NCBI GenBank assembly: GCA_963791145.1
Contig: CAWBRT010000004.1
Span: 11,217 to 75,216, forward strand
Direction of reading: 5' to 3'
Length of the DNA stretch: 64,000 nt
Source: an uncultured Acidobacteriota bacterium
GTDB lineage: Bacteria; Acidobacteriota; Terriglobia; Terriglobales; Acidobacteriaceae
Shown: one piece after another, positions 1-22,387 of the stretch
Layout: each line of letters begins with the position of its first letter
Numbering within the stretch: position 1 is the first letter of the stretch
Notes under the pieces: generated by a model
The model's input: the letters and a program-made list of their open reading frames with translations, nothing else
Database searches by the model: none
Told to the model about the DNA's origin: nothing
Made by a program: the position numbers and the translations under genes

Positions 1-2
1 CC

Positions 3-179
3 GAGCTGCGTCGAGTCTATCGGATCAATCAAGGCACCAAAGTAAGATTCGAGCGCATCAAGGGCGGGATCGCCGTCTACCCCAACTACGAGGACAGCAT
101 CAGCCAGGCGCGCGGCATTGCGGCAGGCCTTGGACTTCCTAATTGTGTTGATCGTGATCCCGAGCGTGAACTGGGATGA
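3..179 (+). CDS. Partial antitoxin (C-terminal end), runs off the window start; partner of the downstream PIN toxin
   Basis: Frame-3 translation reads ...VRFERIKGGIAVYPNYEDSISQARGIAAGL... and ends at a TGA that overlaps the ATG of the next gene (ATGA coupling). Confidence 0.45.
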   Translation, partial: ELRRVYRINQGTKVRFERIKGGIAVYPNYEDSISQARGIAAGLGLPNCVDRDPERELG

Positions 180-598
180 GACAGTACGTACTCGACGCCA
201 ATGCCTTGCTCCGATTCATCATCAACGCCGACGGCGCCGAGATGGTTGAAAAGGTCCTCAAAGAGGCCAGTGCCAGCGAAACGCGGGTCATGATGTCCGT
301 GGTGAACTGGGGCGAAGTGTATTACACAATGGCTCGCCGGATCGGACTAGCCAAAACCGATCAGCTATTGACCGAAACCTTGGAGAAGACACACTTGTGG
401 TTGATTCAAGTCGATCAGGAAAGTATCGCCAAGGTCGCTCGCCTGAAGGCACAAAATCACGACGTCCCATATGCAGATTGCTTCGCGGCAGCGCTCGCCG
501 GCAGCCGGCACGTCCTGGTCACCGCCGACGTCAAGCACTTCGAGCGAGTCCGAACCCCGAAACTACGCCTTCTGAAGTTGCCTCCGGCCAAGCAATAG
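176..598 (+). CDS. vapC: PIN-domain toxin (VapC family)
   Basis: 140 aa; N-terminal VLDANAL motif, later acidic residues and C-terminal LVTAD motif typical of a PIN fold; translationally coupled to the upstream small ORF. Confidence 0.75.
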   Translation: MRQYVLDANALLRFIINADGAEMVEKVLKEASASETRVMMSVVNWGEVYYTMARRIGLAKTDQLLTETLEKTHLWLIQVDQESIAKVARLKAQNHDVPYADCFAAALAGSRHVLVTADVKHFERVRTPKLRLLKLPPAKQ

Positions 599-879
599 GT
601 TTTCAACGCAATTGCGGAACGAGGGCTCGAGTGCGGCCCGCGGCTCGAGCGGCTGCAGCGCCGGCGCCAAGGGGAAGCAGTGCCGCCACCCGTCAACGCT
701 CACCTCTCGGTCGAACGACAGTAATCGGGATCAAGTCCCGCGTGGCAATCGCCCACTAGCGGTTGCCCGCGGGGCTGGCCAGCGTCATCAGTCCGTACCC
801 CGGCCCCGCAGCAACGCACATCTAAATCACCTCTGGGGTTACGGATTTACATGATTTGGGAGCAGCAGCATACGAGAGC

Positions 880-920
880 AGGAGCATTGTAATACAAGAT
901 ATTATTTTGTATTATTATGA
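880..920 (+). promoter_or_regulatory. Inverted-repeat operator immediately upstream of the RHH antitoxin gene
   Basis: tgtAATACAAgatattattTTGTATTattatgacatATG: AATACAA/TTGTATT inverted repeat spanning the -10 region to the start codon. Confidence 0.4.
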
Positions 921-923
921 CAT

Positions 924-1175
924 ATGAGCAGCACCGAAAAAACCATCAGCTTCCGTGCCGTCGCCGAAAAGATCACCGCGCTTGATTCGCTGGCCGCCGC
1001 GCAGAACCGTCCGCGTAGCTATCTCATCAATGAGGCGATCACCAACTACATCGAACTGCACGCCTACCAGGACGAGCTGGTGCGCAAGGGGTTGGAAGAG
1101 ATGCGGAAAGGCCACGTCTTAAGCCATGAGGAGATCATCAAGCGTCTCAAGCGAACGGGGCGAGCACGTAAATGA
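924..1175 (+). CDS. Ribbon-helix-helix antitoxin (ParD/CopG-like)
   Basis: 83 aa; N-terminal beta-strand followed by helices (KTISFRAVAEKITALDSLAAAQNRPRSYLINEAI); start of the next gene overlaps its stop codon. Confidence 0.7.
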   Translation: MSSTEKTISFRAVAEKITALDSLAAAQNRPRSYLINEAITNYIELHAYQDELVRKGLEEMRKGHVLSHEEIIKRLKRTGRARK

Positions 1176-1456
1176 TCGAATGGACCGAGCAGGCGGCCCG
1201 ACAACTGGATCAAGCTCACGATTACATCGCTCTCTCCAACAGCGAGGCGGTCGCCGCCCAGATTACGATGCGGATCGTAACTGGCATTCAACGGCTCGCT
1301 GCCTTCCCGATGTCGGGCAGACCAGGCCGGGTTCCGGGCACCCGTGAGCTGATCATCTCGGATAAGCCTTTTATCGCCGCCTACGCCATCAAAAAAGCCC
1401 GCATTGTGGTCCTCGCCATCTACCACGGCGCACAGCAATGGCCTGAATCCTTCTAA
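1172..1456 (+). CDS. RelE/ParE-family toxin
   Basis: 94 aa; size and position after the RHH gene; IIYRI-like IVVLAIYHGAQ C-terminus. Confidence 0.75.
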   Translation: MIEWTEQAARQLDQAHDYIALSNSEAVAAQITMRIVTGIQRLAAFPMSGRPGRVPGTRELIISDKPFIAAYAIKKARIVVLAIYHGAQQWPESF

Positions 1457-1678
1457 ACACAGGAATTGCCCCAGGAGCACGTTCCCCCAGCTCCGTTCTG
1501 CCACCCGTCAGCTCACCTCACGGTTGTAGGCCTGCTTCGCGCCTTAGTCATGCAGCCGGACATCCCTGACGCGCAAGCCATCGAACGTGCATCCTTCGCT
1601 ACGAACCCATGTTGCAGCGCCAACTATATCGAGCCATGGACGCACTGAGCGGATGCAGCGCCGGCGCCAAAATGCGGC

Positions 1679-1951
1679 TCAGCCTCCGCCCGCAACGGCC
1701 GCGACCAGCACCACTTGATCGCCAGATTTGACAGGCGCTTCCAACCTATCGGGTCCGATCAACTCGTCGTTCAGAAATACCGCCATAATCGGGTTGACAA
1801 CGCCATCCCGGATCCAAATCGAGCGTGCCAGTTGGGGGTGTCTGTCAGTCAGCGTTTCCAGAGCTTTCCTCACCGTATCCGCGGAAACGTAGACGCAGCT
1901 AACCCCGCCGATTCGCTCTTCAAGAAAGTGGGAAAGGCGGATTTGCACCAT
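1679..1951 (-). CDS. MoaD/ThiS-family sulfur-carrier protein
   Basis: Ends ...VAAVAGGG (C-terminal Gly-Gly); an AAGGAG RBS lies before the internal Met (MVQIRLSHF...); positioned immediately downstream of the AOR gene. Confidence 0.55.
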   Translation of the reverse strand: MVQIRLSHFLEERIGGVSCVYVSADTVRKALETLTDRHPQLARSIWIRDGVVNPIMAVFLNDELIGPDRLEAPVKSGDQVVLVAAVAGGG

Positions 1952-3774
1952 CGAGTGCCGCAATCTCCTTGTCAAAAACGGACCAGACCTGTTCGCTCAT
2001 GCTCGAGAAGAACTCGCGGGTAATGAATGGCCCCAGACCCAGGGTCTGATTGGGACGGTCGAAAACTTCGGAGGGTAGCGTGTAATCCGATCGCTCGAAG
2101 CCCTGCTTACGTTCCAGCCACAAGCCCCGCATGTAGGCGCGACGAACGGTGGCCAGCAATTCCGCGGCGGTGATCTCAAGTCCTATCTCATGCTTGAGAG
2201 CGTTGACCAGCAAATCGGGGCTTGTCCCATTGAAACTTGCAAAGTCCCGTCATGTCATCCCGCATCTGGTAGAGGCCGCGTTCGGTGATGGCCTTGACCC
2301 AATACTCCAAGGACATGTCTCGCTCAGCCAGCGGCAAAAGGAGAGTGGCCATCGACATGTGGCCGCCGGCGATGGCAAATGGATATCCCGGATTGGTATC
2401 GGGCAGGTAGGCCGGCAATTCCACTCCCTTGCAGTGCATGGCGTAACCGGTTTCTCCCACTTGCTCGGATAAGCCGTTTACGCCATGCCCGATCTCGGGA
2501 TACCGGCCCGCCGCCGTACCTTGAATCAGGTCCTTGACCTTTTCGACTTCGCCAAAGGTGGCCCCGTTGCAGATTGGTTTTTCGGGATGCCGCTCATTGT
2601 AGTCGAGCACATAGGAAATCGTGGCCCCGAGTGAGATCTGGTCCATTCCGTTGTGGTCGACCATGGAAAGAGCTCACATGCCTGGTTGGGATCGTGAATT
2701 CCCAGATTAGTCGACAGCAGATTCACGGGTTCATAATCGAACTTGGAGAGGAAGCGCCCGCGCTCGCCGGGCGCGGTCTTTTCGTAAAGTTCTTGTGGCA
2801 GTGGATGCCGCAACGGAAACACGATTCCGCCTTAATGTCGAATTGCGGCTCGACCTCGGGACGCGACATCAGCTCGGGTTTGCCGTCCCCCTTCGGCCTG
2901 AAATTGTTCTGCGGTAATAAGTTGACCGGCCCCAACATTTCGTTGCCGCTCCAGGTGCCGCCGAGCCCGCCTTTGTCCTTCTCGCGAAACTTGCGCGAGC
3001 CGGGGCCCGTGCCGATTTCGCGGTTGATGTCGCGGATCTCCGGCTTTACCCTCTAGCTGGTCGTGCGCCTGCGCCACGATGGCGATCACGTTCTTGTAGC
3101 CCAGCACGCTTCCCATGCCGCCGCGGCCCGCGAAGCGGCACTTGTCATCGCCCGATTTCAGAAGGTTTTCGGTGCTCAGCGCCACGGCGCCGAAATAGCA
3201 ACTCTGATAGTGTTCGCCGGCCGGCCCGATTACCGCAAAATGCGCATCGGCATATTCCTGCTTCAGAAGGTTAATTTTCTTGTAGCACGCAAGACCCAGC
3301 AGATGGCGGGCCGGCTTGAATTCCACCTTGGGTCCGTCGCCGCCACCGCGAATTACGATCATGATCGGCTCACTGGCGCGTCCCTCAAAAATCAGTTCGT
3401 CGAGCCCGGTCCATTTCAGTTTGGATCCGAACTTGTCGCTGCCTGCCGACCACATAGCGCCGGGCAGTCCCTTGTTGGAAACTTTCAGTGGACTGTAGGC
3501 CGAAAAGTAGGTCCGTAGCCCTGTCATGAGGCTCGAACCCGTCAGGATGCCGGTGTTCACGATAACGGGGTTTTCCGGTGAATAAGCCCGGGTAACAGTG
3601 CGCGCAGCCAGAAATTGAAGGGAGCGGCCCACCCCACCCAGAACCTCTTCCAGATTTTGGCAAGCAACCTCTGCGATGCGTATACCACGGGAAGACAAGT
3701 CAATCGTGCAGCGAGAATAAAAAACTGCCTTGGGATCGTTTCGTGTTTCGTTGAAAGATAAGCGCACGGCGCAT
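1920..3774 (-). pseudogene. Tungsten-type aldehyde:ferredoxin oxidoreductase (AOR) gene split over at least four frames
   Basis: AOR-like segments in the ORFs 2832-3857 (N-terminal domain: GIRIAEV...LGGVGRSLQFLAAR...IVIRGGGDGPK), 2526-2822, 2188-2664 and 1920-2213 (C-terminal domain); a poly-T tract sits near the N-terminus. Confidence 0.65.
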
Positions 3775-4421
3775 CGTCTCCTTCTCAATCGCAGCAAGGT
3801 CGCGCCCTGGGCTGGACGCTTTGTTGTCAAGAAACGAGACGACGATACTTCGACCACTTAGGCATGTCAAGCCGCTTGAGGGGGCGCGTCCTTATGATCT
3901 GCGGAACCGGCTTGATGCGCACCGGATTTTCAATTCGACACACCTGGCGGAGCAAACACCTGATCAGGCAAAGTCCAGGGTCCGTAAGCCAGCAAGGGCA
4001 ACCAAAGCAGCGAAAGGTGGGAAAAGGCCGGCGAGCGGTTGCCCGCGATTGCAGCTCCTGAGGCCGTGATAGCGCGAGGACTCACAGGATGTCGTGACAT
4101 ACGTCACATTCTGTATCACGCGCTCGCATGTATTATCGCGCAACTTTTGATTGTGTGTGGAAAATTGTGCTCTGAATATTCTTTGTTTTCGACCAACATG
4201 TCGTTTCGGGGTGATCGCCTGTCTAAGGGGCGCTGGCAATTCTGAAAAAGCGCTGGTTTTCCACGTGGACTGATCAAGAGAGGCAACAGACTTGGTCTGC
4301 GGGACATATTGGCGAATTCGCATGAACCGCGATCACGAACGGGTTTACGATCAGAGCTTTCCGACCAGTCTGCAGGGGATAAAGATCAAGCAATATCTAG
4401 CTCACAAAATAAGGGGGAAGT

Positions 4422-5648
4422 ATGTTCAATAGTAGGTTGAGGATCTTTGCCCTCGTATTGCTCATGGGTATTTTGGCTTTGAGTTCGACCATGGCTGAGG
4501 GTCAAAGCATCAAGGTTGGAGCGCTGTATCCTTTCAGCGGCCCGCTTGCCCTGCTTGGGGACGAGAGCTTCCGCGGGCTGGAAATTGCGATCGACGAGAT
4601 CAACGCCGCCGGCGGCATTCAAGGCGGCAAGAAAATCGAGATCGTGAAAGCAGATGGAGTTGACCCGAACGCCGCTGTGGGCGAGGCGCGGCGCCTTACC
4701 TCGGTCGCCGGCGTAAAGGTGATATTTGGGACGTATGCATCAACCATTGCCTTTGCCGCCAGCCAGGTGGCTGAATTGGCGGGCGTTCCCTACTTTGAAC
4801 TCGGCGCTATCTCTGATCCGATTACAGAACGCAAGTTCAAGTACACCTTCCGGACGAATCCCACCTCCAAAATGTTTGCCGCCACCATCGTCGATGTGAT
4901 TAACGATGCCATTGCTCCGGCTCTGAAGGTGAAGGCAAAGGACTTGAAGATCGCCATTATCCATGAGGACAGCCTCTATGGCACAACCGTCGCCGGCTAC
5001 CAAAAAGAGAGAGCCAAGGAAAAAGGTCTGAACGTTGTTGAGATTCTGCCCTACTCGAAGGACACGGTAGATATGTCGTCGCTCATCCTCCGGCTAAAAG
5101 GAGCTGGCGTCGACATCGTGCTGCAGACTTCTTACCTGAACGACTCGGTCCTTTTTTTCCGTCAGATGCACGAAGCTGGTTTTAAGCCGAAAGCCGTAAT
5201 CGGGGCTGGCGGTGGCTATTCGATGATAGACACTGTCAAAGCTGTAGGCGCCAAGAATGTTGAAGGCGCCTTCGATGTTGACTTCACCCAGTACCGCACC
5301 AATCCCAAGGCAGCCCCCGGCATCGCCGACTTTCTCAAGAAGTACAGGGCCAAGTACGGCACCGAGCCCAGGTCCGGGCACAGCCTTACCAACTACTTCG
5401 GTGCAAAAGCCATCTTCGCCGCCATCAACAAGGCCGGTTCCATGGACAAGGATGCCATTCGCACCCAGGTCATGAGCCTTGATATTCCGGCTGGAACCAC
5501 GGCCACCGGTTGGGGAGTGAAGTTCGGTCCTGATGGACAGAATACCCGCTGTGCGCCGTTCCTGATGCAGTGGCAGAACGGCGAACTGGTCACCGTGTAC
5601 CCGCCATCTGCGGCGGTTGCCAAGCTTAAGACCGGTGTGGGCATATAG
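4422..5648 (+). CDS. livK: Branched-chain amino-acid ABC transporter substrate-binding protein (LivK/LivJ family) with signal peptide
   Basis: 408 aa; N-terminal hydrophobic signal; type-I periplasmic binding fold motifs (GALYPFSGPLALLG, VKVIFGTYAS); AAGGGGGAAG RBS. Confidence 0.8.
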   Translation: MFNSRLRIFALVLLMGILALSSTMAEGQSIKVGALYPFSGPLALLGDESFRGLEIAIDEINAAGGIQGGKKIEIVKADGVDPNAAVGEARRLTSVAGVKVIFGTYASTIAFAASQVAELAGVPYFELGAISDPITERKFKYTFRTNPTSKMFAATIVDVINDAIAPALKVKAKDLKIAIIHEDSLYGTTVAGYQKERAKEKGLNVVEILPYSKDTVDMSSLILRLKGAGVDIVLQTSYLNDSVLFFRQMHEAGFKPKAVIGAGGGYSMIDTVKAVGAKNVEGAFDVDFTQYRTNPKAAPGIADFLKKYRAKYGTEPRSGHSLTNYFGAKAIFAAINKAGSMDKDAIRTQVMSLDIPAGTTATGWGVKFGPDGQNTRCAPFLMQWQNGELVTVYPPSAAVAKLKTGVGI

Positions 5649-5716
5649 TTTTCGCCGACGCTCCCGGGGGGACGCTAACGCGTCCCCTTTTCTCCTGACC
5701 GCAACGTCCAACAATT

Positions 5717-6589
5717 ATGGAAATTCTACTGCAGCTTGTGGTCAACGGCCTGTTACTGGGCGGCATGTATGCCATTGTGAGTGTCGGTCTGACCCTCATT
5801 TTTGGCGTGATTCGGGTGGCCAACTTCGCCCATGGCGAGCTGCTGATGATCGGTATGTACGCCGTTTATCTGCTGAATAAGTACCTGGGCCTTCATCCCT
5901 ATGTCGCGGCAGGCCCGGTGATTGTGCTGCTGTTTATCATCGGCGCTGCGATCCAGCGTTTTATCATTCAACCGCTGTTGAATTCCGATCCCGAAATCCA
6001 GATCTTCGCCACCGTCGGATTATCCACCGCACTGATGAACCTGGCGCTGCTGTTATTTGGCGCCAACATGGTTTCCGTGGGAGCTACGGGACTGCGCGAG
6101 GGCCTCAAGGTTGGACCGGTGCAGCTGATCTACGCGAATATCGTAATGTTCTTCATGGCCGTCCTGCTGGTCATCGGGTTGAACCTGTTTCTTACCCGGA
6201 CATACATGGGCCGCGCCATCCGCGCCACCTCCCAGAATCGCTTCGCAGCTCCGCTGATGGGTATTAACGTGAAGAAGGTGTATATCCTCACCTTCGGCAT
6301 CGGCGCCGCCTGCGTCGGGCTGGCTGCCGCGTTGGTGTCGCCGACGTATCCGGCTTTTCCCACGATCGGCACCTACTTCGTTCTCACCGCCTTTGTCGTC
6401 GTGGTTCTGGGAGGAATGGGGAGTCTGTACGGCGCCTTCGCCGGGTCCATGATTATTGGCGTGGTTGACTCGCTGAGCGGGTTCTACATTGCTCCGAACC
6501 TCAGGGAGGTCGTTTACTTCCTGATTTTCATCGTCATCCTTGTCGCACGACCCACAGGATTATTCGGTCTCGGCCGGGGAGCGGAATGA
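5717..6589 (+). CDS. livH: Branched-chain amino-acid ABC permease LivH
   Basis: 290 aa polytopic membrane protein; LivH-like ANFAHGELLMIG motif. Confidence 0.8.
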   Translation: MEILLQLVVNGLLLGGMYAIVSVGLTLIFGVIRVANFAHGELLMIGMYAVYLLNKYLGLHPYVAAGPVIVLLFIIGAAIQRFIIQPLLNSDPEIQIFATVGLSTALMNLALLLFGANMVSVGATGLREGLKVGPVQLIYANIVMFFMAVLLVIGLNLFLTRTYMGRAIRATSQNRFAAPLMGINVKKVYILTFGIGAACVGLAAALVSPTYPAFPTIGTYFVLTAFVVVVLGGMGSLYGAFAGSMIIGVVDSLSGFYIAPNLREVVYFLIFIVILVARPTGLFGLGRGAE

Positions 6590-6680
6590 CGAAACTCGAT
6601 TCTGTACTGTTTCCCAATTGCCATTCCCAAGGCAGATGCGCACGGATGCGGGTCGAGTTACAAAGAGGGACGTCGAACAA

Positions 6681-8519
6681 ATGAAGCAGGAAACTGTTGT
6701 CGGCGAGCGCTCCGTCCGTTCAAGCTGGGAGCTGCTGCGGACTCTCGTGGAGCCCAGGGTCTATCTCAGCGTAGTCGCTCTCTTAGTGCTGCTGGCGATT
6801 CCGATTGCGGTGGACTCTTCGTTTGTCTACCACGTTTTTGTCACCATCTGTTTGTATGGCGCGCTGGCCATCGCCTGGAATATTGTTGGCGGTTACGTGG
6901 GGCAGCTCTCGCTTGGCCATGCCAGTTTTTACGGCATCGGCGGATACACGTCGGTACTTTTGCTGGATCATTATCAGATTTCTCCTTGGCTCAGCATGTG
7001 GATTGGGGCTGCTTTGGCAGCATTAGTTGGGGTGGCCATCAGCTATCCATGCTTCCGGTTGCGCGGGCCATTCTTTGCTCTGGGCTCAATCGCCTTCCTG
7101 CAGGTCTTTCGGCTTCTGGTCGTGCATGAAAGCGCTCTGACCGGCGGAGCATCGGGCTTGATCGTGCCGCTGAATCTCGGATGGAAGTGGATGATCTTTC
7201 AGGAAAAGGAGCCGTACTTACTGATCGCCTTTGGATTCCTGTCCGTCAATCTTCTGATCTCGTTGGCCATCAGGAAATCGCGTTTCGGCTACCAAGCGCT
7301 GGCGGTTCGCGAGCGGGAAGATGCCGCCATGGCTGCCGGGATCAACACCGTCCGGGTCAAAGTCTTTGCCGTGCTGATCTCAGCAGCGCTCACGGCCATG
7401 GTGGGCTCGTTCCACGCCATGTACATGACCTTCATCGACCCTCCGACGATGTTTTCGCTGGAATTTTCCATACAGATCACCATGTTTGCCCTCATCGGCG
7501 GACTCGGCACGGTCGCCGGTCCGCTGGCCGGCACACTCTTGGTGGTTCCGCTGACCGAGTTGGCCCGAGGATGGTTGGGCGGTGCTGCCGGTGGGTTGCA
7601 CGGCTTCGTGTACGGAGTAGTGCTGCTGATCATCGTGTTGCTGCTGCCGGCGGGAATCGTTGGCCGCTTTGGACCTGCTATTTCAAGGTTAGTCAATCGC
7701 TTCCCGGGTACGCGCCCGATCGGTGAACCGGAGGTGATGGCGGACTTTCCCCGGATTGTGACCCATGTTGCCGAGGGCCAGCCTATGCTGTCGGCGAAGA
7801 ACATCGTCAAGCGCTTTGGCGGCTTGGCCGCGACCGACAACGTCACTATGGATTTGCGCAAAGGAGAGATTCTGGGACTGATCGGGCCGAACGGGGCGGG
7901 AAAGACAACGATCTTCAACCAGTTGTCGGGGTTTATCGTTCCGGACTCGGGGACGGTCGAGGTGATTAACGAGGCTGGCCATAAGGTCTCTCCCACGGCA
8001 CCCCACGAATTCGCCAAAGCAGGAATCGGGCGAACCTTTCAAATTGTTCAGCCCTTCGGCAAGCTCACAGTTTTGGAAAACATCGTGATCGGGGCGCTCC
8101 ACAAATGTCGCTCCACTTCCGACGCTCGTCTAAAGGCGCTCAAAGTTGCCCGGCAAGTGGGGCTTTACGAAGACCGGTACACGGTCGCCAACAACTTGAC
8201 CATCGGTGGCCTAAAGCGCCTTGAGGTGGCTCGGGTTCTGGCAATGGAGCCGCAGATTCTGCTTCTGGATGAGGTCATGGCCGGTCAGAATCTCACCGAT
8301 GTCAACCTCTCAGTGGAGATGATTCGCAAGATCCGCGACAAGGGTGTCACCGTCATCGCCATTGAGCACAACATGCATGCCATCATGAGGATATCCGATC
8401 GGGTTATCGTCTTTAACTCTGGGCGCATTATCGCCGAAGGGACTCCCGGGGAAGTGGCCCGAGATCCGGCAGTTATTGAAGCTTATTTGGGCGAGGAATA
8501 CATCCATGCTCAAGCTTAA
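6681..8519 (+). CDS. Fused LivM-type permease and LivG-type ATPase
   Basis: N-terminal ~330 aa polytopic permease; C-terminal Walker A GPNGAGKTT, signature LTIGGLKRLEVAR and Walker B LLLDEV; AGAGGGA RBS before the ATG at 6681. Confidence 0.75.
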   Translation: MKQETVVGERSVRSSWELLRTLVEPRVYLSVVALLVLLAIPIAVDSSFVYHVFVTICLYGALAIAWNIVGGYVGQLSLGHASFYGIGGYTSVLLLDHYQISPWLSMWIGAALAALVGVAISYPCFRLRGPFFALGSIAFLQVFRLLVVHESALTGGASGLIVPLNLGWKWMIFQEKEPYLLIAFGFLSVNLLISLAIRKSRFGYQALAVREREDAAMAAGINTVRVKVFAVLISAALTAMVGSFHAMYMTFIDPPTMFSLEFSIQITMFALIGGLGTVAGPLAGTLLVVPLTELARGWLGGAAGGLHGFVYGVVLLIIVLLLPAGIVGRFGPAISRLVNRFPGTRPIGEPEVMADFPRIVTHVAEGQPMLSAKNIVKRFGGLAATDNVTMDLRKGEILGLIGPNGAGKTTIFNQLSGFIVPDSGTVEVINEAGHKVSPTAPHEFAKAGIGRTFQIVQPFGKLTVLENIVIGALHKCRSTSDARLKALKVARQVGLYEDRYTVANNLTIGGLKRLEVARVLAMEPQILLLDEVMAGQNLTDVNLSVEMIRKIRDKGVTVIAIEHNMHAIMRISDRVIVFNSGRIIAEGTPGEVARDPAVIEAYLGEEYIHAQA

Positions 8520-13446: not shown

Positions 13447-13550
13447 GTAGGAGAGCGAGAGGAAGCCGCCTAAAGCCGGGCGGCTTTATTTTCCGGTATG
13501 TATCTCTGTGGTGGAGTGCTGAACCGAAGGTAAACCGCTGGATCCCACTG
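13447..13550. repeat. ~100-bp direct repeat, copy A (terminator hairpin plus conserved downstream segment)
   Basis: agcgagaggaagccgccNaaagcNgggcggcttt ... ctgaaccNNaggtaaaccgctgga, shared with 14505-14615 at roughly 75% identity. Confidence 0.5.
13458..13495 (+). terminator. Rho-independent terminator after the SDR gene
   Basis: GCCGCCtaaagccGGGCGGC hairpin followed by TTTATTTTCC. Confidence 0.55.
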
Positions 13551-14299: not shown

Positions 14300-14464
14300 A
14301 TGGTTTCCATCACTCGGAGCGATTATTTTGGATACGAGCAGGAGGAAGCGCGAAAGATCCCGGGTGATGATCGCATACTCGCGGCCCAAGCCATCGTGGA
14401 GGGCATTACGCTGCTTACGAATGACCGTAAGCTTCGCGATTACCCAGGCCCAATACGGAAGGGG
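14300..14464 (+). pseudogene. C-terminal stub of a PIN-domain (VapC) toxin
   Basis: ...PGDDRILAAQAIVEGITLLTNDRKLRDYP matches the C-terminal helix/strand of PIN toxins (compare D-IAATA-LVT-D-F); no N-terminal half and no antitoxin are present. Confidence 0.4.
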
Positions 14465-14504
14465 TGATCGAATCTCAGGACCCCGGACACTCGGGTTTCA
14501 TTTT

Positions 14505-14615
14505 ATTCTAGCGAGAGGAAGCCGCCCAAAGCTGGGCGGCTTTTCCATTTGCGGTATTCCTCTTCCTGGGAGGCTGCTGAACCACAGGTAAACCGCTGGA
14601 CCTCAGACGTTGATG
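14505..14615. repeat. ~100-bp direct repeat, copy B (includes a perfect 8-bp-stem terminator hairpin GCCGCCCAaagcTGGGCGGC followed by TTTT)
   Basis: Shares the hairpin and downstream tail with copy A; lies just after the VapC stub. Confidence 0.5.
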
Positions 14616-15024
14616 GGTTCAGCTGGGCCTGCACTGCGGAGGTACGCTGGCCCAGCGAGGAAACTGTCGGTCCTATTGCTCGAATTGCGACTCGGGCGGT
14701 TAGCGGCGGCACCAGTTCACCTTGGCGTCGAGGCCGCAGGCGCTTGAGCTGACCATGGCGCCACACAGACGCAGAAGGTGGCTTTCACACGGAGGGTTCG
14801 GTCCCCAGCCTCGGGGCTGGCCATGTCTGGACGAGCTACTAGAGCGCGATGCTCAGGACTGCGCTGCAGCACTAAGCATGTCCTTCTGAACCAACTCCGG
14901 ACTGCGGTGGAGGTTGAACACCTCTTCGCCCGATCACGACGAAGCTGCTGAAGAATCGTCCATACTGGCCATCAAATTCTTCTTGCGTACTTACTTCGAA
15001 GGAGTGTACCTTATACGGTACATT

Positions 15025-15423
15025 GTGAAAACGAAGCGTCCAATTGCGGTACTCGGCAGTCGTGACGCTCCGCAGAAGCGGATCAGTGCCATCTTCTATC
15101 GAGCGGAGTCCGGAGGCGAGCCCGTTCGCGATTGGCTCAGGAGTCTTCGCAAGGAAGAGCGGAAATTGATAGGCAAGGACATTATGACTGTCGAGTTTGG
15201 GTGGCCCGTCGGGATGCCTGTGTCGCGGCCGCTTGGGCAAGGATTGCACGAAGTCAGAACGAATTTGCCGGGAAACAGGACTGCGCGAGTGTTGTTCTAC
15301 ATCGACCGACTCAACCGGATGGTGTTGCTCCACGGGTTTATCAAGAAGACGGCGGTAACGCCAGCGGACGATCTGAAGCTGGCACGCAGCAACAAAGCGA
15401 AACACCAGCGAGGACTGAAATGA
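15025..15423 (+). CDS. HigB-like toxin of the RelE/ParE superfamily (phage Gp49-like)
   Basis: GTG start; ...VLFYIDRLNRMVLLHGFIKKT motif typical of Gp49/HigB-type toxins; ATGA overlap with the downstream XRE gene. Confidence 0.6.
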   Translation: MKTKRPIAVLGSRDAPQKRISAIFYRAESGGEPVRDWLRSLRKEERKLIGKDIMTVEFGWPVGMPVSRPLGQGLHEVRTNLPGNRTARVLFYIDRLNRMVLLHGFIKKTAVTPADDLKLARSNKAKHQRGLK

Positions 15424-15827
15424 GCAGCACCAAGAGATTCGATCACAGTGGATCAGCGTTCGATAGCTTTCTCGAAGAAGAGGGTGTTCTTGCGGAGACT
15501 GAGGCCGTCGCGCTGAAGAGAGTGATCGCCTGGCAGATCGAGCAGGTAATGGCAGCCAAGAGAATCACCAAGAACGTCATGGCTAAGCGCCTCTTCACAA
15601 GCCGAACGCAGATTGATCGACTGCTCAACCCCTCTCACGTAGGCGTGAGCATCGAGACCATAGCGCGCGCAGCGAAGGCTGTCGGGAAACGAGTAATATT
15701 CCAGATTGTAGATGCAGAGATTGTTCACCACCGGTTCAAGGAGACCAAGAGTGGTGCAAAACTGACGCGCGGAAAGTCTGTAAGACCTGCGAAAACTCAG
15801 CGCAAGAATGTTGCCCGAGCCGGTTAG
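15420..15827 (+). CDS. XRE-family helix-turn-helix antitoxin (HigA-like)
   Basis: HTH segment ITKNVMAKRLFTSRTQIDRLLNPSHVGVSIETIARAAKAVG; coupled to the upstream toxin. Confidence 0.65.
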   Translation: MSSTKRFDHSGSAFDSFLEEEGVLAETEAVALKRVIAWQIEQVMAAKRITKNVMAKRLFTSRTQIDRLLNPSHVGVSIETIARAAKAVGKRVIFQIVDAEIVHHRFKETKSGAKLTRGKSVRPAKTQRKNVARAG

Positions 15828-16897
15828 CGGTTCTCGGCGCGACACGACTACAGATGGCTATCGACGCCAGCTTACCGAGCCAACAGAGCGGTGCGGAAAG
15901 GCACGCGCGGCTAAGCTTACACCTGAGCAGCGAAGTGAGAGCGCAAGGAAGGCAGCAATGGCCCGTTGGGAAGCTAAGCGTCGAGACAGGCAATAGCTGT
16001 ATTTTTGTGCAGGTGCGATGGAGCCGCCCATGTCTGGGAGGCTCTTTCCATTTATGGCCGCTTTTTCCCAGCAGGCCCTACGGAACGATCGCCCAATAGA
16101 TATTCATCTGGGCCAGTGCTTTGATGGCATGCCGATCTCGCTGCCAAAGAGCGACCTATTGGCGCCTACGCTGCAAGCGCTCAAGCCGGCTACGTCCTGT
16201 TCTTATTTAGAAAACCAAAACCACCTCGGCTACACCGTGCCGGCGCGACAAACCGAGATAGTGCGAAGCGCCGTGCTGCCGGGGCGGGCGTTCGAGCTGA
16301 CCCACAGCCGGTACAGCTGACGACACGAAACGACCTTCATGCCACAGCATCAGGTCTGTAGCCTCCCAGCCGGGTAAACGCGCCTAGGCAATTTGCAAGG
16401 CGGAAGCGGTGCGGGGATTGTAATCTCCTTATCCCAAGTGAAATCTGTTTTCCACAGCCTTCTATATTGACAAGCAATGTTACGCTTGTACCAGCTACGT
16501 GCTCCTTTTCGCCTGCGGCGACGCCCATCGTCCCGTTAAAGTGGAGGTCGCGAAGAGGTCACTGGTTCCTGGCGGCTCGGGGAGCCACCCGGGAAACAAA
16601 GGCTGAAGTTCCGTCCCCGGTGCGGATGAAGTCGACCGGTGAAATGCTCCCCCCATCCGATCTCGGTTGGTCTACACCAGTAGACTGCGCAAAATCCGAA
16701 AAACCTTAATTTAGCGTCCTGCTCGCAACCGCTGCGCAGCAGGTGAGCGCATTTCTCTGCCTAAAAAGGCAGAAGGGAGAAAATATGGACCCGCATGATG
16801 AATACCTGAGCTGAATGCTGACGCACAACCCAAGAACCCCGAGCAAAACGGGTCCTCAAATGGAGCAAACGGGAGCAAACCGAAGCGGCGACATACG

Positions 16898-17674
16898 ATG
16901 ACCGAAAAGCGGCTCAAGGCAAACCGCGAGAATGCGAAATGTTCGACAGGGCCACGCACTCCAGAAGGGAAGAGGGCCGCGTGTTTCAACGCCGTCAAGG
17001 ATGGCATCCTCGCAAAAGATGTTATCGGTTCGGGCCGAATCGTGGGCGAATCTTTGGAGGGAAATGTGGCCTTTGTTTCCGAGCTGGTTGAAGATTGCGA
17101 GCCGGTCGGGAAATTCGAGCGAGCATTAGCCGTGGATATTGCGGGCTACTTCATTTGTAAGCAGCGCGCTGATCGGGCTGAGCAGGCCGCAATCGAAATT
17201 GCACAGCGCGAGTCTGACTCAATGGAAACCATAGAATCATTGCAACGTAGTGCACTAGCGGCGAAGTTTCCAAAATCGTTGTCGGCCAGGGGGGATGTCC
17301 TTCGCTCACTAGTTGCGGTTCAGTACCTCATTAATCGTTGCGCAGAGGCCTTGCAGCAATTGGAATCGGGCCAGATTAACAAACATACATTGGGCGAACT
17401 GGACCGGTTCTTGGGGACTGATTTCGTCGATAGGATTGCGACACCTTCAGAGTTGCCCGGACTCTTCGCGGAGCTCAAGTCCGCATTGGAACAATCGGCG
17501 GCGGGGCTTCAAAAGAAGCGAGCCTTGCTCAAGTTGAGTAAGAGCCTACCTGAAGCTCTTGATCGCATCATCAGATACAAATCGATGGTCCATCGTCACC
17601 TAATGCAGACCATGCAACAGCTAGCCACACTACAACAATGCCGGCGGCAGCGGAAGGAGGAGCAAAATGACTGA
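16898..17674 (+). CDS. Hypothetical protein (258 aa, helical); no family recognised
   Basis: Long ORF with coding-like composition; stop overlaps the start of the next gene (ATGACTGA). Confidence 0.5.
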   Translation: MTEKRLKANRENAKCSTGPRTPEGKRAACFNAVKDGILAKDVIGSGRIVGESLEGNVAFVSELVEDCEPVGKFERALAVDIAGYFICKQRADRAEQAAIEIAQRESDSMETIESLQRSALAAKFPKSLSARGDVLRSLVAVQYLINRCAEALQQLESGQINKHTLGELDRFLGTDFVDRIATPSELPGLFAELKSALEQSAAGLQKKRALLKLSKSLPEALDRIIRYKSMVHRHLMQTMQQLATLQQCRRQRKEEQND

Positions 17675-18365
17675 CTCGCAAAAGGAAGTTAATGCAGATG
17701 AATTGGCGGTGCTTGAATGGCTTACGGATCATCTCCTAGCTAGTTTTGACCTTGAGGCCGAGATCGAGTATTTGAAGGTCAAGCACGAGCTTCAATCGTA
17801 CTCGCAAATGCCAAAATCACAACGGCCACAGCCGAGGTCAGCGGGCCAAGAATTTTCTGGGATCGATAGCAAACCAAAATATGATGGCATTCAGCGGTTC
17901 GAAATGACTGGCGAGGAGTGGCAGGCGTTAGCTGAAAGAGTACGAAAGAAGTGGGAGAAAAAACGAGATGAGGAGTTAGCCAAGAAAGCCAAGCAGGTGG
18001 AGCAGCAAGAAAATTCGTATACCACGGCTTCGGTTCCGGTGCCTACACTGCCTCCCGGACACGTAACCTGGGCGGAAGGACCTGTTCCCCCGCGGAGAGA
18101 CGGACCACCGGATACTAATAATTCGGCCATTCAGAAGCCAGCTTCTACACCACCTGCTTCGGAACCGAACACAACCAAGTCGTCGTTGCAACCAGCTACT
18201 CCCGAGTCGACTGGAAGGAGTGCTCCGGCGAGCCCCGAACTTCGGCCGCGAAACCCCCTCTTCGACGGACCAATTCGGTGGCGCCATTCGGATGAAACGC
18301 GCCGCGAACGCCTTTATGAGCGAGCACCGAATGGCGAAATTCGTGAACTTGATCCCCAGAATTAA
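17667..18365 (+). CDS. Hypothetical protein (232 aa) with a charged coiled-coil centre and Pro/Ser/Thr-rich tail
   Basis: Translationally coupled to 16898-17674. Confidence 0.45.
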   Translation: MTDSQKEVNADELAVLEWLTDHLLASFDLEAEIEYLKVKHELQSYSQMPKSQRPQPRSAGQEFSGIDSKPKYDGIQRFEMTGEEWQALAERVRKKWEKKRDEELAKKAKQVEQQENSYTTASVPVPTLPPGHVTWAEGPVPPRRDGPPDTNNSAIQKPASTPPASEPNTTKSSLQPATPESTGRSAPASPELRPRNPLFDGPIRWRHSDETRRERLYERAPNGEIRELDPQN

Positions 18366-18713
18366 GCTTGATTGATTTCGTACAGAGGGAGCCGAAAAAG
18401 GATTTTTCGGCCCCTCCTATTCCTGACACATACGAGCACAGGCCGCAAATGGGAAGCTGCGGCCGTGTTCGAGGCTACCCGTGATCCGGTTGCGAGTGCC
18501 GTTTTGATGGCGGCTATCGCCAGAAAACCAAGAGGAGTACAACAGTCCAAAGAGGCAAAGCGACCCACCAGCTTTGGGCGCGGGGCTGGCCAGCAGCATC
18601 TGTCCACAACCAGGAAAGCGAGAGAGAGGAGCTGTAAGACTGCTGCGAGGAGAAGAGCGTAGCCACGTGCTAGCCTCTTTGGGAGTCCACCGCAGTCGGT
18701 CGCGGAAAGTGGC

Positions 18714-19115
18714 CTACCAGATGGTGTCCACGACCTTTGCTGCCCGAATACACTCGTCGGCCGTGACCAATGGGCACCCTTCGATGATGGCGGTAGAACC
18801 GATCAAACGGTCGGCGGGGTCTTTCGGATAGTTTGCCGGGAGCCGTACAGCCAGGGCGGCAATTTCGGGGGTCAAGGGGCGGAGAATGACCCTTGAAACG
18901 GTTTCGCGGACAAACGACTCCACCGTGCCGGCAACATGGATGCGCCCATGCTGCGCGAGCCAGGCCAGCTCCCATAGTGTGATCGTCGCTACGGCGAGAG
19001 CGCTGCTCTGGCGTGCCTTGCGGATTGCTTCCCGGGCCTTCCTGGAGAGCCGTTTCGGCTCGGCAGCCATCCAGATGAGGGTGTGAGTGTCGAGCAGGAT
19101 CATTTGTTCTCCCAA
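18714..19115 (-). CDS. vapC: PIN-domain toxin VapC
   Basis: ILLDTHTLIW ... PADRLIGSTAIIEGCPLVTADE; classic PIN acidic residues. Confidence 0.8.
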   Translation of the reverse strand: MGEQMILLDTHTLIWMAAEPKRLSRKAREAIRKARQSSALAVATITLWELAWLAQHGRIHVAGTVESFVRETVSRVILRPLTPEIAALAVRLPANYPKDPADRLIGSTAIIEGCPLVTADECIRAAKVVDTIW

Positions 19116-19330
19116 TCTTCCAGCGGCGTGACGGGCGCGACGATGTCACCGAGAATCGTCACTTTTCCAGCCATATAGCCAAAAACCTCATCCCCGGTCG
19201 ATTCGGCCGGGACGAGCTTTGCCACCGGCTTGCCGTGCTTTGTAATCAGCACCGGCTCGCCGCTCTGCTGCACCTGGTTCATGATGGCAAGGCATTGAGA
19301 TTTGAAGTGACCTGCGGGTATTTCCTTCAT
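19100..19330 (-). CDS. Phd/YefM-family antitoxin
   Basis: 76 aa; ...GEPVLITKHGKPVAKLVP... is the Phd/YefM signature; overlaps the vapC start. Confidence 0.8.
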   Translation of the reverse strand: MKEIPAGHFKSQCLAIMNQVQQSGEPVLITKHGKPVAKLVPAESTGDEVFGYMAGKVTILGDIVAPVTPLEDWENK

Positions 19331-21175: not shown

Positions 21176-21660
21176 GACGGAGGATTTGACTGGAACATAC
21201 CTGTGGACGGACTGGCGGAAAGGGCGGCACAGTCGGGGTCGTGACGATGAACCGTCCTGTATTTCATGAATGCGTCCGCCAGAAGGGCAGCGTGAGGGTA
21301 ATACACGAATACGAACTCGAAAGGCACACACAACGAACAAAGGAGAAGGAACATGAAGATCTTGATGGTGCTACGGCGGATTCTGGAGAGCATCAGAAGC
21401 GATTAATGCCTTCGAGCCAATGCTGGCAATTGAGAACAGCGCTCCAGCGGCTTTCGAATGGATAGTCCTCTGTGGGCCCAGGAACCCCAGGCAGTACAGG
21501 AGGAGGGACTGCTTGCAGTAAGTGGTCGTGCTGCACAAAGATTCGAGACTACGCCAGAGCAGGCGGGAGGTTCTGTTAATTAATGCAACCATTCTTTTGC
21601 AATTGCTATCGACAGAGTCAACACTTTGGCAAAATCTAGCATTAGTCAGGAGACCAAAGC

Positions 21661-21993
21661 ATGAAACAAATCGGTTGCTTATTGTTGCTCATTCTGTGTT
21701 TGAGTGTATGGATGTACGCGGCAGACTCAGACACGTCAATGGAGACCAGCGGCACGATCTGCAACACCCATTGCGTCATATACGGGCGAGACCTTTCCAG
21801 TTGCGACTCCAGCTGCACGGTCACCAGCGGTGAGGCTGTGCTTATTAACGATGCCGGCGAAGTCAAGAAGATCAAGAACCAGGAAATGTGTACAAGCCAC
21901 ATGGGCAAGCATGTAAAGATGACGGCTGTCCCAACAGAAAAGGACGGTGAGCAGTGGCTCCAAGTTAAGCAGCTCAACGATGATGCTCGCTAG
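21661..21993 (+). CDS. Small secreted Cys-rich protein (110 aa, 7 Cys after the signal peptide)
   Basis: AGGAGA RBS 8 nt before the ATG; signal peptide LLLLILCLSVWMYAADS; lower-GC region. Confidence 0.5.
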   Translation: MKQIGCLLLLILCLSVWMYAADSDTSMETSGTICNTHCVIYGRDLSSCDSSCTVTSGEAVLINDAGEVKKIKNQEMCTSHMGKHVKMTAVPTEKDGEQWLQVKQLNDDAR

Positions 21994-22387
21994 TTCGTAG
22001 CCACCGGGACTGCTTCTCCACGGGTTGTCTTCGTACTGATTGCAGTTGAACTCTTTCATCGTTGCAAGCTGCACGCGTTGGGACTGATGGGTTAGTCTCC
22101 CGGCCAGGTCAACGTGTCGCCCCAAGCGTTGACTGAAATCACCGAGTTCCTTATCGACATTCGCAATCGGCCCCCGGTCGGACTGTCGTCTGAAAAGACG
22201 TTGAGTTCAATCGGACGTGCCCAAAGGGGGGACACCGTGACCCAACCTGGTGCTACACAACGAGGCAGCGAGTTGGCAACTGACGCCGTGCCTTGGGAGG
22301 CTTTTCCTAAGCCAAAGACGCCTGGGTTTACTCGATCCGCGCGTCATTCAGGCCGCTGTGCTAACTGAGATAGGTAGGAGTCGAATC

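Follow-up and report, generated by a model that had tools for sequence, protein, structure and literature searches.

What kind of genetic element is a pair of overlapping genes of no nameable family that sits among known toxin-antitoxin (TA) modules? The question is raised by positions 16898-18365 of a 64,000-nt stretch of contig CAWBRT010000004.1 from an uncultured member of the Acidobacteriaceae (hereafter the window, numbered from its first base), in which the original prediction had placed two coupled genes and suggested a new TA or abortive-infection (Abi) system. The two open reading frames (ORFs) are located on the forward strand and both start with ATG. ORF1 (16898..17674) encodes a basic protein of 258 aa (isoelectric point, pI, of 8.9) that is predicted to be all-helical, and ORF2 (17667..18365) encodes an acidic, mostly disordered protein of 232 aa (pI 5.6). 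Neither component belongs to a described family, and in architecture the pair is an addiction-like cassette of two genes. Our preferred but tentative reading is that the pair represents a horizontally exchanged, selfish-type accessory cassette, in which ORF1 is accompanied by a lineage-private acidic modulator, ORF2.

A conserved junction between ORF1 and ORF2

The overlap of the two genes, of 258 and 232 codons as originally described, was confirmed by the ORF calls and amounts to 8 nt (ATGACTGA, 17667-17674). A GGAGG sequence (17656-17660) is located inside the 3' end of ORF1, 6 nt 5' of the ORF2 start codon, and the translational-coupling junction as a whole spans positions 17656..17674 of the forward strand. 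The same layout was observed in all three other copies of ORF2, one in locus L002 and two (copies A and B) in locus L001, where a GGAGG-like Shine-Dalgarno (SD) sequence is followed by ATGGCTGA or ATGGCTAA, such that the consensus over the four copies is a GGAGG-like SD sequence and then ATG(A/G)CT(G/A)A. The junction is not a product of chance, since all three homologues of ORF2 have kept the SD sequence and the overlap behind a homologue of ORF1. A stable hairpin 20 nt past the ORF2 stop codon (18385..18416, forward strand; minimum free energy -20.8 kcal/mol, z -3.15, none of 200 shuffled sequences as stable) is likely to mark the end of the transcription unit, although no U-run follows it. 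Scans for RNA genes, with Rfam and tRNA models in the window and with Rfam in 12 loci, gave nothing.

One explanation for this arrangement is that the genes form a new type II TA or Abi pair, in which ORF1 would be a basic effector encoded first and ORF2 an acidic, partly disordered and labile antidote held in a fixed ratio through the coupling. We regard this as possible but rather unlikely. The conserved SD sequence and 8-nt overlap would fit such a module, as would the extensive disorder of ORF2 and the complementary charges of the products (pI 8.9 for ORF1 against 4.2 for the N-terminal hairpin of ORF2), which are seen in many TA pairs, whereas no palindromic operator could be recognised upstream of the pair, a promoter scan of the same region recognised no sigma-70 consensus, and the two proteins exceed the usual size of type II TA partners.

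ORF1 and the STGPRTPEGK-motif family

A search with the single ORF1 sequence yielded 100 homologues. Where a source gives them a name, this is 'hypothetical protein', except for one 'DNA primase' label in the JGI data (P0054), and they contain no Pfam domains except for a SEC-C motif in P0095. In an alignment of 34 members (A1), the N-terminal part of the proteins is characterized by the motif ANRxNAxxSTGPRTPEGK..NAxKHG, in which nine residues are invariant (N12, S16, T17, G18, P19, R20, T21, G24 and K25). All nine are present in the window protein, where the signature covers residues 8-40 (ANRENAKCSTGPRTPEGKRAACFNAVKDGILAK, 16919..17017, forward strand). The motif is followed by a conserved helical segment (residues 51-100, 17048..17197, forward strand) with the family consensus ED..F..L...L.P.G..E..LVE.IA..WRL.R..R.E, in which E51, P69, E74 and R90 are nearly invariant, then by a variable helical middle and finally by a conserved C-terminal helix (residues 226-254, RYKSMVHRHLMQTMQQLATLQQCRRQR, 17573..17659, forward strand) with the consensus RYE..L.R.L.R...L..LQ..R, which in ORF1 reads RYx...LQ..R.

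ORF1 (P0001) is matched by positions 8-262 of the A1 profile with an E value of 5.9e-60, but this score is partly obtained by construction since P0001 is one of the 34 aligned sequences, and independent support comes from the 100 homologues of the single-sequence search. As judged from these signatures, ORF1 is a divergent member of an unnamed family that we refer to by its STGPRTPEGK motif. Both ORF1 and its closest relative, P0002, have an Asp in place of the near-invariant His35 (KHG to KDG), a residue that is His in at least 90% of the members, and ORF1 is devoid of the otherwise near-invariant Trp of WRLxR.

For ORF1, AlphaFold2 modelling on the basis of 34 homologues gave an exclusively helical structure that includes long hairpins (pLDDT, the predicted local distance difference test, of 82), in line with the helical protein that had been expected. 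Confidence is high for the conserved helical segment (pLDDT 86-98) and for the C-terminal helix (pLDDT 90-98) and low for the motif region (pLDDT 46-68). The pI is 9.8 for the first 45 residues.

A search of 1.84 billion cluster representatives (clusters formed at 50% identity) with the profile yielded 49,713 clusters at E<=1e-3; at the stricter limits of E<=1e-10 and E<=1e-30 the numbers were 32,970 and 8,128. The peptide STGPRTPEG matched more than 599 stretches in a set of contigs with one genome per species, 361 of which were confirmed as relatives. The confirmed relatives are from Bryobacterales, Terriglobia, several orders of Planctomycetota, Verrucomicrobiota, Anaerolineae, Armatimonadota, Zixibacteria, Rubrobacter and Kuenenia, and the members of the family as a whole are mostly derived from metagenome-assembled genomes (MAGs) of Acidobacteriota, Planctomycetota, Verrucomicrobiota and Chloroflexota. 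Only 5 matches were obtained in 2.9 million viral contigs, none in the phage collection and a single weak one in the plasmid collection. No papers that mention the motif strings were found among the 8 million searched. Ten long members of the family (468-755 aa) contained no fusions to Pfam domains, and the extensions of long members displayed no homology to ORF2.

ORF2 is a private partner of one ORF1 subclade

The original description of ORF2 as a charged coiled coil with a tail rich in Pro, Ser and Thr agrees well with the AlphaFold2 model (pLDDT 52), in which helices are modelled for residues 10-26, 29-45 and 82-117, the last of these at pLDDT 74-80, and the remainder has values below 50. 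Three parts can be distinguished, all given here on the forward strand. The first is an acidic helical hairpin (residues 10-48, 17694..17810, alignment A4) that comprises the first two helices, has the conserved consensus ELAVLxWL...EAEIxYL...ELQ.YSQ.P and contributes to a pI of 4.2 for residues 1-48. The second is a conserved module, KPKYDGIQRFEMTGEEWQALAERV, together with a helix rich in Lys and Glu (residues 68-117, 17868..18017, alignments A4 and A5); its consensus is KPKxDGIxRFExTxEEWxAIAxRV, and R77, F78, W85 and A87 are invariant in A5. The third is the disordered tail (residues 118-232, 18018..18362, pLDDT mostly below 50), 37% of which is Pro, Ser and Thr and which is present in the ORF2 homologues of L001 and L002 but poorly conserved.

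Only three homologues of ORF2 (P0244, P0245 and P0246) were found besides the protein itself in 5.8 billion protein clusters, with three samples represented in all, and two identity values to homologues in BLASTP were 42% and 36%. The searches were performed with ORF2 alone and with a profile, and further homologues could have been missed because the profile scored only the 8,000 candidates that shared the most words. Scans of JGI metagenomes gave no homologue of ORF2 and no close relative of ORF1, and the plasmid collection gave no match to ORF2. All four copies of ORF2 are located directly behind a homologue of ORF1, with an identical layout of the 8-nt overlap. ORF2 accompanies ORF1 in a single narrow subclade, as a private partner coupled to it at the level of translation. 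Its occurrence in three samples, within the limits of the 8,000 profile-scored candidates, is a point against a TA module.

Comparisons with known protein families

That neither protein could be assigned to a family by name in the original prediction was upheld by all comparisons. Searches against Pfam, NCBIfam, PADLOC and PHROGs gave no significant match to ORF1 or ORF2, and for the window proteins there was no PADLOC match at E<=1. Likewise, ten canonical relatives of ORF1 had no significant family match, the best PADLOC hit (E 0.0016) being weak coiled-coil noise. A sequence-profile search of the PDB and a fold comparison gave no match, and the fold of ORF1 is that of a generic coiled coil or helical hairpin.

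For either partner, no homology was detected to the superfamilies of known toxins (RelE/ParE, PIN, MazF, HipA, Doc/Fic, HEPN, GNAT and Zeta) or antitoxins (Phd, RHH, HTH, AbrB and others), nor was there a PADLOC, Pfam or fold match to a toxin, an antitoxin or an Abi protein, all of which reduces the probability of a TA pair. Transposases and recombinases of the DDE, DEDD, HUH, serine and tyrosine types were not matched in Pfam or NCBIfam, and the all-helical model has no corresponding fold.

A variable locus between shared flanks

As originally proposed, and now with Pfam matches on both sides, the pair is located between two TA modules. Upstream, on the forward strand, is an ORF for a HigB-like protein (14914-15423; Gp49, PF05973, E 1.6e-15), which overlaps by 4 nt with the gene for a helix-turn-helix (HTH) antitoxin-like protein (15420-15827). 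Downstream, on the reverse strand, are the genes for PIN/VapC (18714-19115, E 1.5e-16) and Phd/YefM (19100-19330, E 1.1e-10). The AT-richness attributed to the stretch was also recovered: the GC content is 0.49-0.53 over positions 17000-18000 as compared to 0.55-0.61 on either side, and the GC content at third codon positions (GC3) is 0.58 for ORF1 and 0.50 for ORF2 as compared to 0.65-0.72 for core genes (those for a transporter, a dehydrogenase, VapC and HU).

We compared the locus with L002, a contig of a related strain from another sample. The two have in common the flanks of a variable segment (14791..18575) with sharp breakpoints: positions 1-105 of L002 are 99% identical to 14686-14790 of the window, and positions 2276-2331 are 95% identical to 18576-18631. 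Between these flanks L002 contains 2.2 kb with a divergent pair alone, whereas the window contains 3.8 kb with the HigBA genes, a gap of about 1 kb and the pair. Similarity in the interior is limited to parts of the pair (68-77%), and the encoded proteins ORF1' and ORF2' are 54% and 36% identical to those of the window. Since the alleles of the pair have diverged far more than the flanks and GC3 is low, either horizontal exchange or very fast evolution is indicated. The gap between HigA and ORF1 (15828-16897) is without a convincing gene and has no counterpart in L002; an ORF of 96-100 aa is called inside it in the Logan assembly (16018/16030-16320), and the gap may hold the decayed remnants of cassettes.

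In the second related locus, L001 (ENA ERZ25039509 contig_83688, 1-7493), two copies of the pair are located within 6 kb in a dense TA array that includes MazE/PIN, DUF2442/DUF4160, two HigB/HTH pairs, a HepT-like gene and DUF2283. Copy B is decayed in both genes, its ORF1 being devoid of the first approximately 92 codons, including the motif, and its ORF2 being frameshifted. The MazE/PIN segment of L001 (1462-2059) is 92% identical to positions 1-598 of the window, and for this reason another copy of the pair may be located just upstream of the window.

The position between HigBA-like and Phd/VapC modules, the presence of both L001 copies in a TA array, the fast divergence of alleles between conserved flanks and the joint decay of the two genes are all features that a TA pair would be expected to have. 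The divergence of the alleles and the joint decay are also among the observations that we read as signs of an exchanged accessory cassette.

Stand-alone and multi-copy members of the ORF1 family

The analyses of genome loci rest on 80 loci of the ORF1 family. Among these, at least nine copies were present in the Bryobacterales genome CBDEGI01, six in CBDCHL01 and four in each of three further genomes. The copies in CBDEGI01 are megabases apart and display 89-97% DNA identity across a sharp-edged unit of 1.2 kb, which consists of a leader of about 180 nt, a gene of 894 nt and a trailer of about 140 nt. Likewise, in six further genomes from different phyla the similarity is restricted to a stretch of 0.7-1.4 kb that includes the gene. 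The copies have remained intact, and purifying selection on them is apparent from ratios of nonsynonymous to synonymous substitution frequencies (dN/dS) of 0.06-0.32. Some paralogues differ by dS values of about 0.05 as compared to 0.11-0.15 for orthologous copies in two genomes. Dispersed near-identical copies per genome, as in insertion sequences, are thus a property of the family but not of the window copy, the only gene of the ORF1 type within the 64 kb.

No Pfam family was recurrent upstream or downstream at about 64 loci, where the neighbours are random housekeeping genes, and TA or defence genes were not enriched among the immediate neighbours. No homologue of ORF2 was found at any of the 80 loci. 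The conserved pairing that the original prediction looked to holds for the close relatives, in which every copy of ORF2 is coupled, but does not extend to the ORF1 family at large. As the wider family is solo, ORF1-type proteins probably need no protein antidote in general. This near-universal solitary state without a conserved partner and the lack of enrichment for TA and defence genes next to relatives elsewhere are arguments against the reading as a TA or Abi pair.

Candidates for a conserved downstream partner elsewhere were rejected: the downstream genes in L007 and L011 encode housekeeping enzymes, and the ORFs that look coupled in L010, L047, L069 and L020 are unlikely to be genuine, being repetitive and of extreme Arg/Gly-rich composition with a weak GC3 bias. 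The ORF in L020 (approximately 5950-6050) translates to VAQLVEQRTENPCVAGSTPALP, which we take to resemble read-through of a tRNA gene, so that a tRNA gene may adjoin this copy. In a single genome, the Planctomycetota MAG MFD03726.bin.2.7, a gene for an HNH_3 (homing-type) endonuclease is located behind three repeated copies (L012 5937-6770, L014 5535-6830 and L036 5917-6723), possibly indicative of an endonuclease that is spreading among paralogous copies of the family.

The distribution of the family is as expected for a selfish or mobile gene, or alternatively for dispersed old paralogues that are kept alike by gene conversion, and is unlike that of an operon component. We considered whether the genes of the ORF1 family are the core of unrecognised small mobile elements with a single gene, to which ORF2 would be a lineage-specific accessory, the window copy having landed in the island. 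The sharp-edged unit in at least nine dispersed copies and the similar units in six more genomes are in accordance with this, as are the intact copies under purifying selection, a state known from active insertion sequences, the paralogues that are closer to each other than orthologous copies are, the random flanking genes and the duplication and replacement of the cassette in the window and in L001. We nevertheless find it improbable that the family is of this type: the all-helical coiled coil has no fold or motif of a nuclease, recombinase or reverse transcriptase, polymorphism in the presence or absence of copies was not seen, viral contigs and plasmids are almost devoid of family members, and gene conversion among old paralogues accounts for the same pattern. 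Further arguments are that a divergent member, P0045, occurs in the same context in six samples, between the genes for cytochrome c and RNase J, and that repeats, target duplications and orthologous positions do not speak for insertion (see below). In its widest form, this proposal would have the family represent selfish elements of a new class, each autonomous and composed of a single gene, that spread or stay uniform in Acidobacteriota, Planctomycetota and related phyla through a helical nucleic-acid-binding protein rather than a classical transposase, with the window pair as a derived two-component version in a TA island. We consider this doubtful; if correct, it would be categorically new.

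The stable context of P0045 could instead point to an ordinary, non-selfish cellular function, for example a nucleoid-associated, regulatory or scaffolding coiled coil (ORF1) with an adaptor (ORF2), such that the proximity to TA genes would be coincidental and the copy number a result of duplication and gene conversion. The generic coiled-coil or hairpin fold and the purifying selection on the family copies would also be explained in this manner. However, the atypical GC3, the replacement of the allele between near-identical flanks, the decay of one copy in L001 and the extremely narrow distribution of ORF2 are not what such a function predicts, and a regulator would rarely be expected in many near-identical copies within one genome. 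We judge an ordinary cellular pair to be very improbable.

Several features of the non-coding parts of the units were recorded. The 1.2-kb unit in L041 (4818-6030) has equivalents in L043, L046, L060, L061, L065, L074, L075, L081, L083 and L085, all from two Bryobacterales genomes. A GC-rich hairpin and a T-run (-46 to -60 kcal/mol, z -4 to -9) directly precede the ribosome-binding site in the leader of these units, hairpins that resemble repetitive extragenic palindromic (REP) elements are found at the end of the trailer, and two classes of hairpins are located directly to the left of the unit. The leader structure was rejected as a family-wide trait, since it is strong in the Bryobacterales units only; over 81 leaders the mean z is -1.0, with z below -2 for 25%. 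In an Isosphaeraceae MAG (L048 1332-1467), three copies of a perfect REP-like palindromic arm of 34-37 nt are located directly after the ORF1-family gene. Tandem repeats of heptamers in L027 (4941-4965), L077 (4947-4979) and L012 (5901-5938) were dismissed as gene-specific features, since such repeats, with various motifs, are common throughout the intergenic DNA of these planctomycete genomes, the leaders of ORF1-family genes being only one of the places where they occur.

A tentative model and its comparison with known systems

If the pair is an exchanged, selfish-type cassette as we tentatively suggest, its parts may be envisaged to work as follows. With the invariant basic motif at its N-terminus, ORF1 would bind either nucleic acid or some conserved machinery of the cell, and its helical hairpins would drive oligomerisation. 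The acidic N-terminal hairpin of ORF2 would bind to ORF1 and mask or modulate it, the SD sequence and overlap at the junction would secure a tight 1:1 synthesis of the two proteins, and the disordered tail would render ORF2 the more labile partner. The pair would then follow an addiction-like logic and, as in HigBA, have the gene for the hypothetically toxic effector in first position.

A number of observations weigh against this reading, and the first three of them also against a mobile element. Terminal inverted repeats were absent from the three units examined, a boundary alignment of 11 copies showed no target-site duplications, and at least two copies are found at orthologous positions in two Bryobacterales genomes. 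In combination, these results leave the term 'mobile' unproven, and concerted evolution of old paralogues fits them equally well. ORF1 has moreover lost two near-invariant residues of the family, His35 (now Asp) and the Trp of WRLxR, and may for this reason not have kept the family function. Binding of nucleic acid by ORF1 through the N-terminal motif is probable solely on account of the basic and invariant character of this motif. Finally, as the L002 contig extends over no more than 2.3 kb, its flanks in common with the window measure just 105 and 56 nt.

One of the closest parallels is with type II TA systems in which the toxin is encoded first, such as HigB/HigA. In both cases two small, coupled genes are located on the same strand, the first product is basic and the second acidic and partly disordered, and location in TA clusters, variation among strains and decay as a unit are shared features. 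The pair differs in that it has no similarity to toxins or antitoxins, in that ORF2 contains no DNA-binding domain, in the size of the proteins (230-260 aa) and in that the ORF1 family is mostly solo. The family as such is reminiscent of insertion sequences and multi-copy selfish genes, with near-identical, sharp-edged, single-gene units of about 1.2 kb that are intact, under purifying selection and placed among unrelated housekeeping genes. Unlike insertion sequences, the units have no inverted repeats at their ends, no target duplications and no transposase or recombinase fold in the encoded protein; insertions were not seen to be polymorphic, and some copies are orthologous between genomes.

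KfrA-like plasmid proteins and proteins with arginine-rich motifs, such as lambda N, resemble ORF1 in having a short basic N-terminal segment followed by long helices suited for oligomerisation. However, no homology is detectable, and the invariant STGPRT..GK..N..HG motif is of neither the HTH nor the AT-hook nor the arginine-rich type. In being hypothetical proteins from MAGs for the most part and in having no Pfam or NCBIfam model, the members of the ORF1 family resemble other unannotated 'dark' families of uncultivated soil and sediment phyla, from which they stand out by the size of the family (about 50,000 clusters at 50% identity) and by the multi-copy state within genomes. While the pair itself is a rare and lineage-restricted cassette, the larger finding is that its first gene belongs to one of the bigger unannotated families of environmental bacteria. 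An annotation could be given to tens of thousands of 'hypothetical proteins' from soil and sediment phyla if the family were to represent a new kind of selfish or mobile gene, or a new module for the binding of nucleic acids. ORF2 is a candidate for a natural binder or modulator of an ORF1-type protein, and the two alleles between near-identical flanks provide a ready test of specificity.

Other features of the window

The rest of the window is ordinary chromosome, with genes for a Liv-type ABC transporter, several dehydrogenases, PilZ and HU, in addition to a MazE/PIN pair at 1-600. An aldehyde:ferredoxin oxidoreductase is split into a C-terminal domain (2188-2664) and an N-terminal domain (2832-3857), both on the reverse strand, and probably represents a disrupted gene.

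A direct repeat of about 95 nt is present at 13454-13547 and 14510-14605, with a partial copy at 16012-16045. The copies mark the borders of small gene blocks, namely the PilZ block, HigBA and the region ahead of the pair. In a comparison of two copies, identity is 94% over the first 34 nt and 74% over the 58 nt that follow; the first 34 nt fold as a terminator-like hairpin (AAGCCGCC..GGGCGGCTTT), which is followed by a non-palindromic tail. An integron gene cassette was considered but is not favoured: the border repeat is not attC-like, and no integrase is present among the ORFs annotated in the first 24 kb (1-24 kb).

An ORF of 55 aa on the forward strand (14300-14467) resembles, by eye, the C-terminal end of PIN/VapC (…ILAAQAIVEGITLLTNDRKL…), and on this visual judgement is probably a TA remnant beside the HigBA pair. 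A second stretch of low GC content (0.49) is located at 21250-22000 and contains an ORF of 110 aa (21661-21993) with a signal-peptide-like N-terminus and several cysteines.

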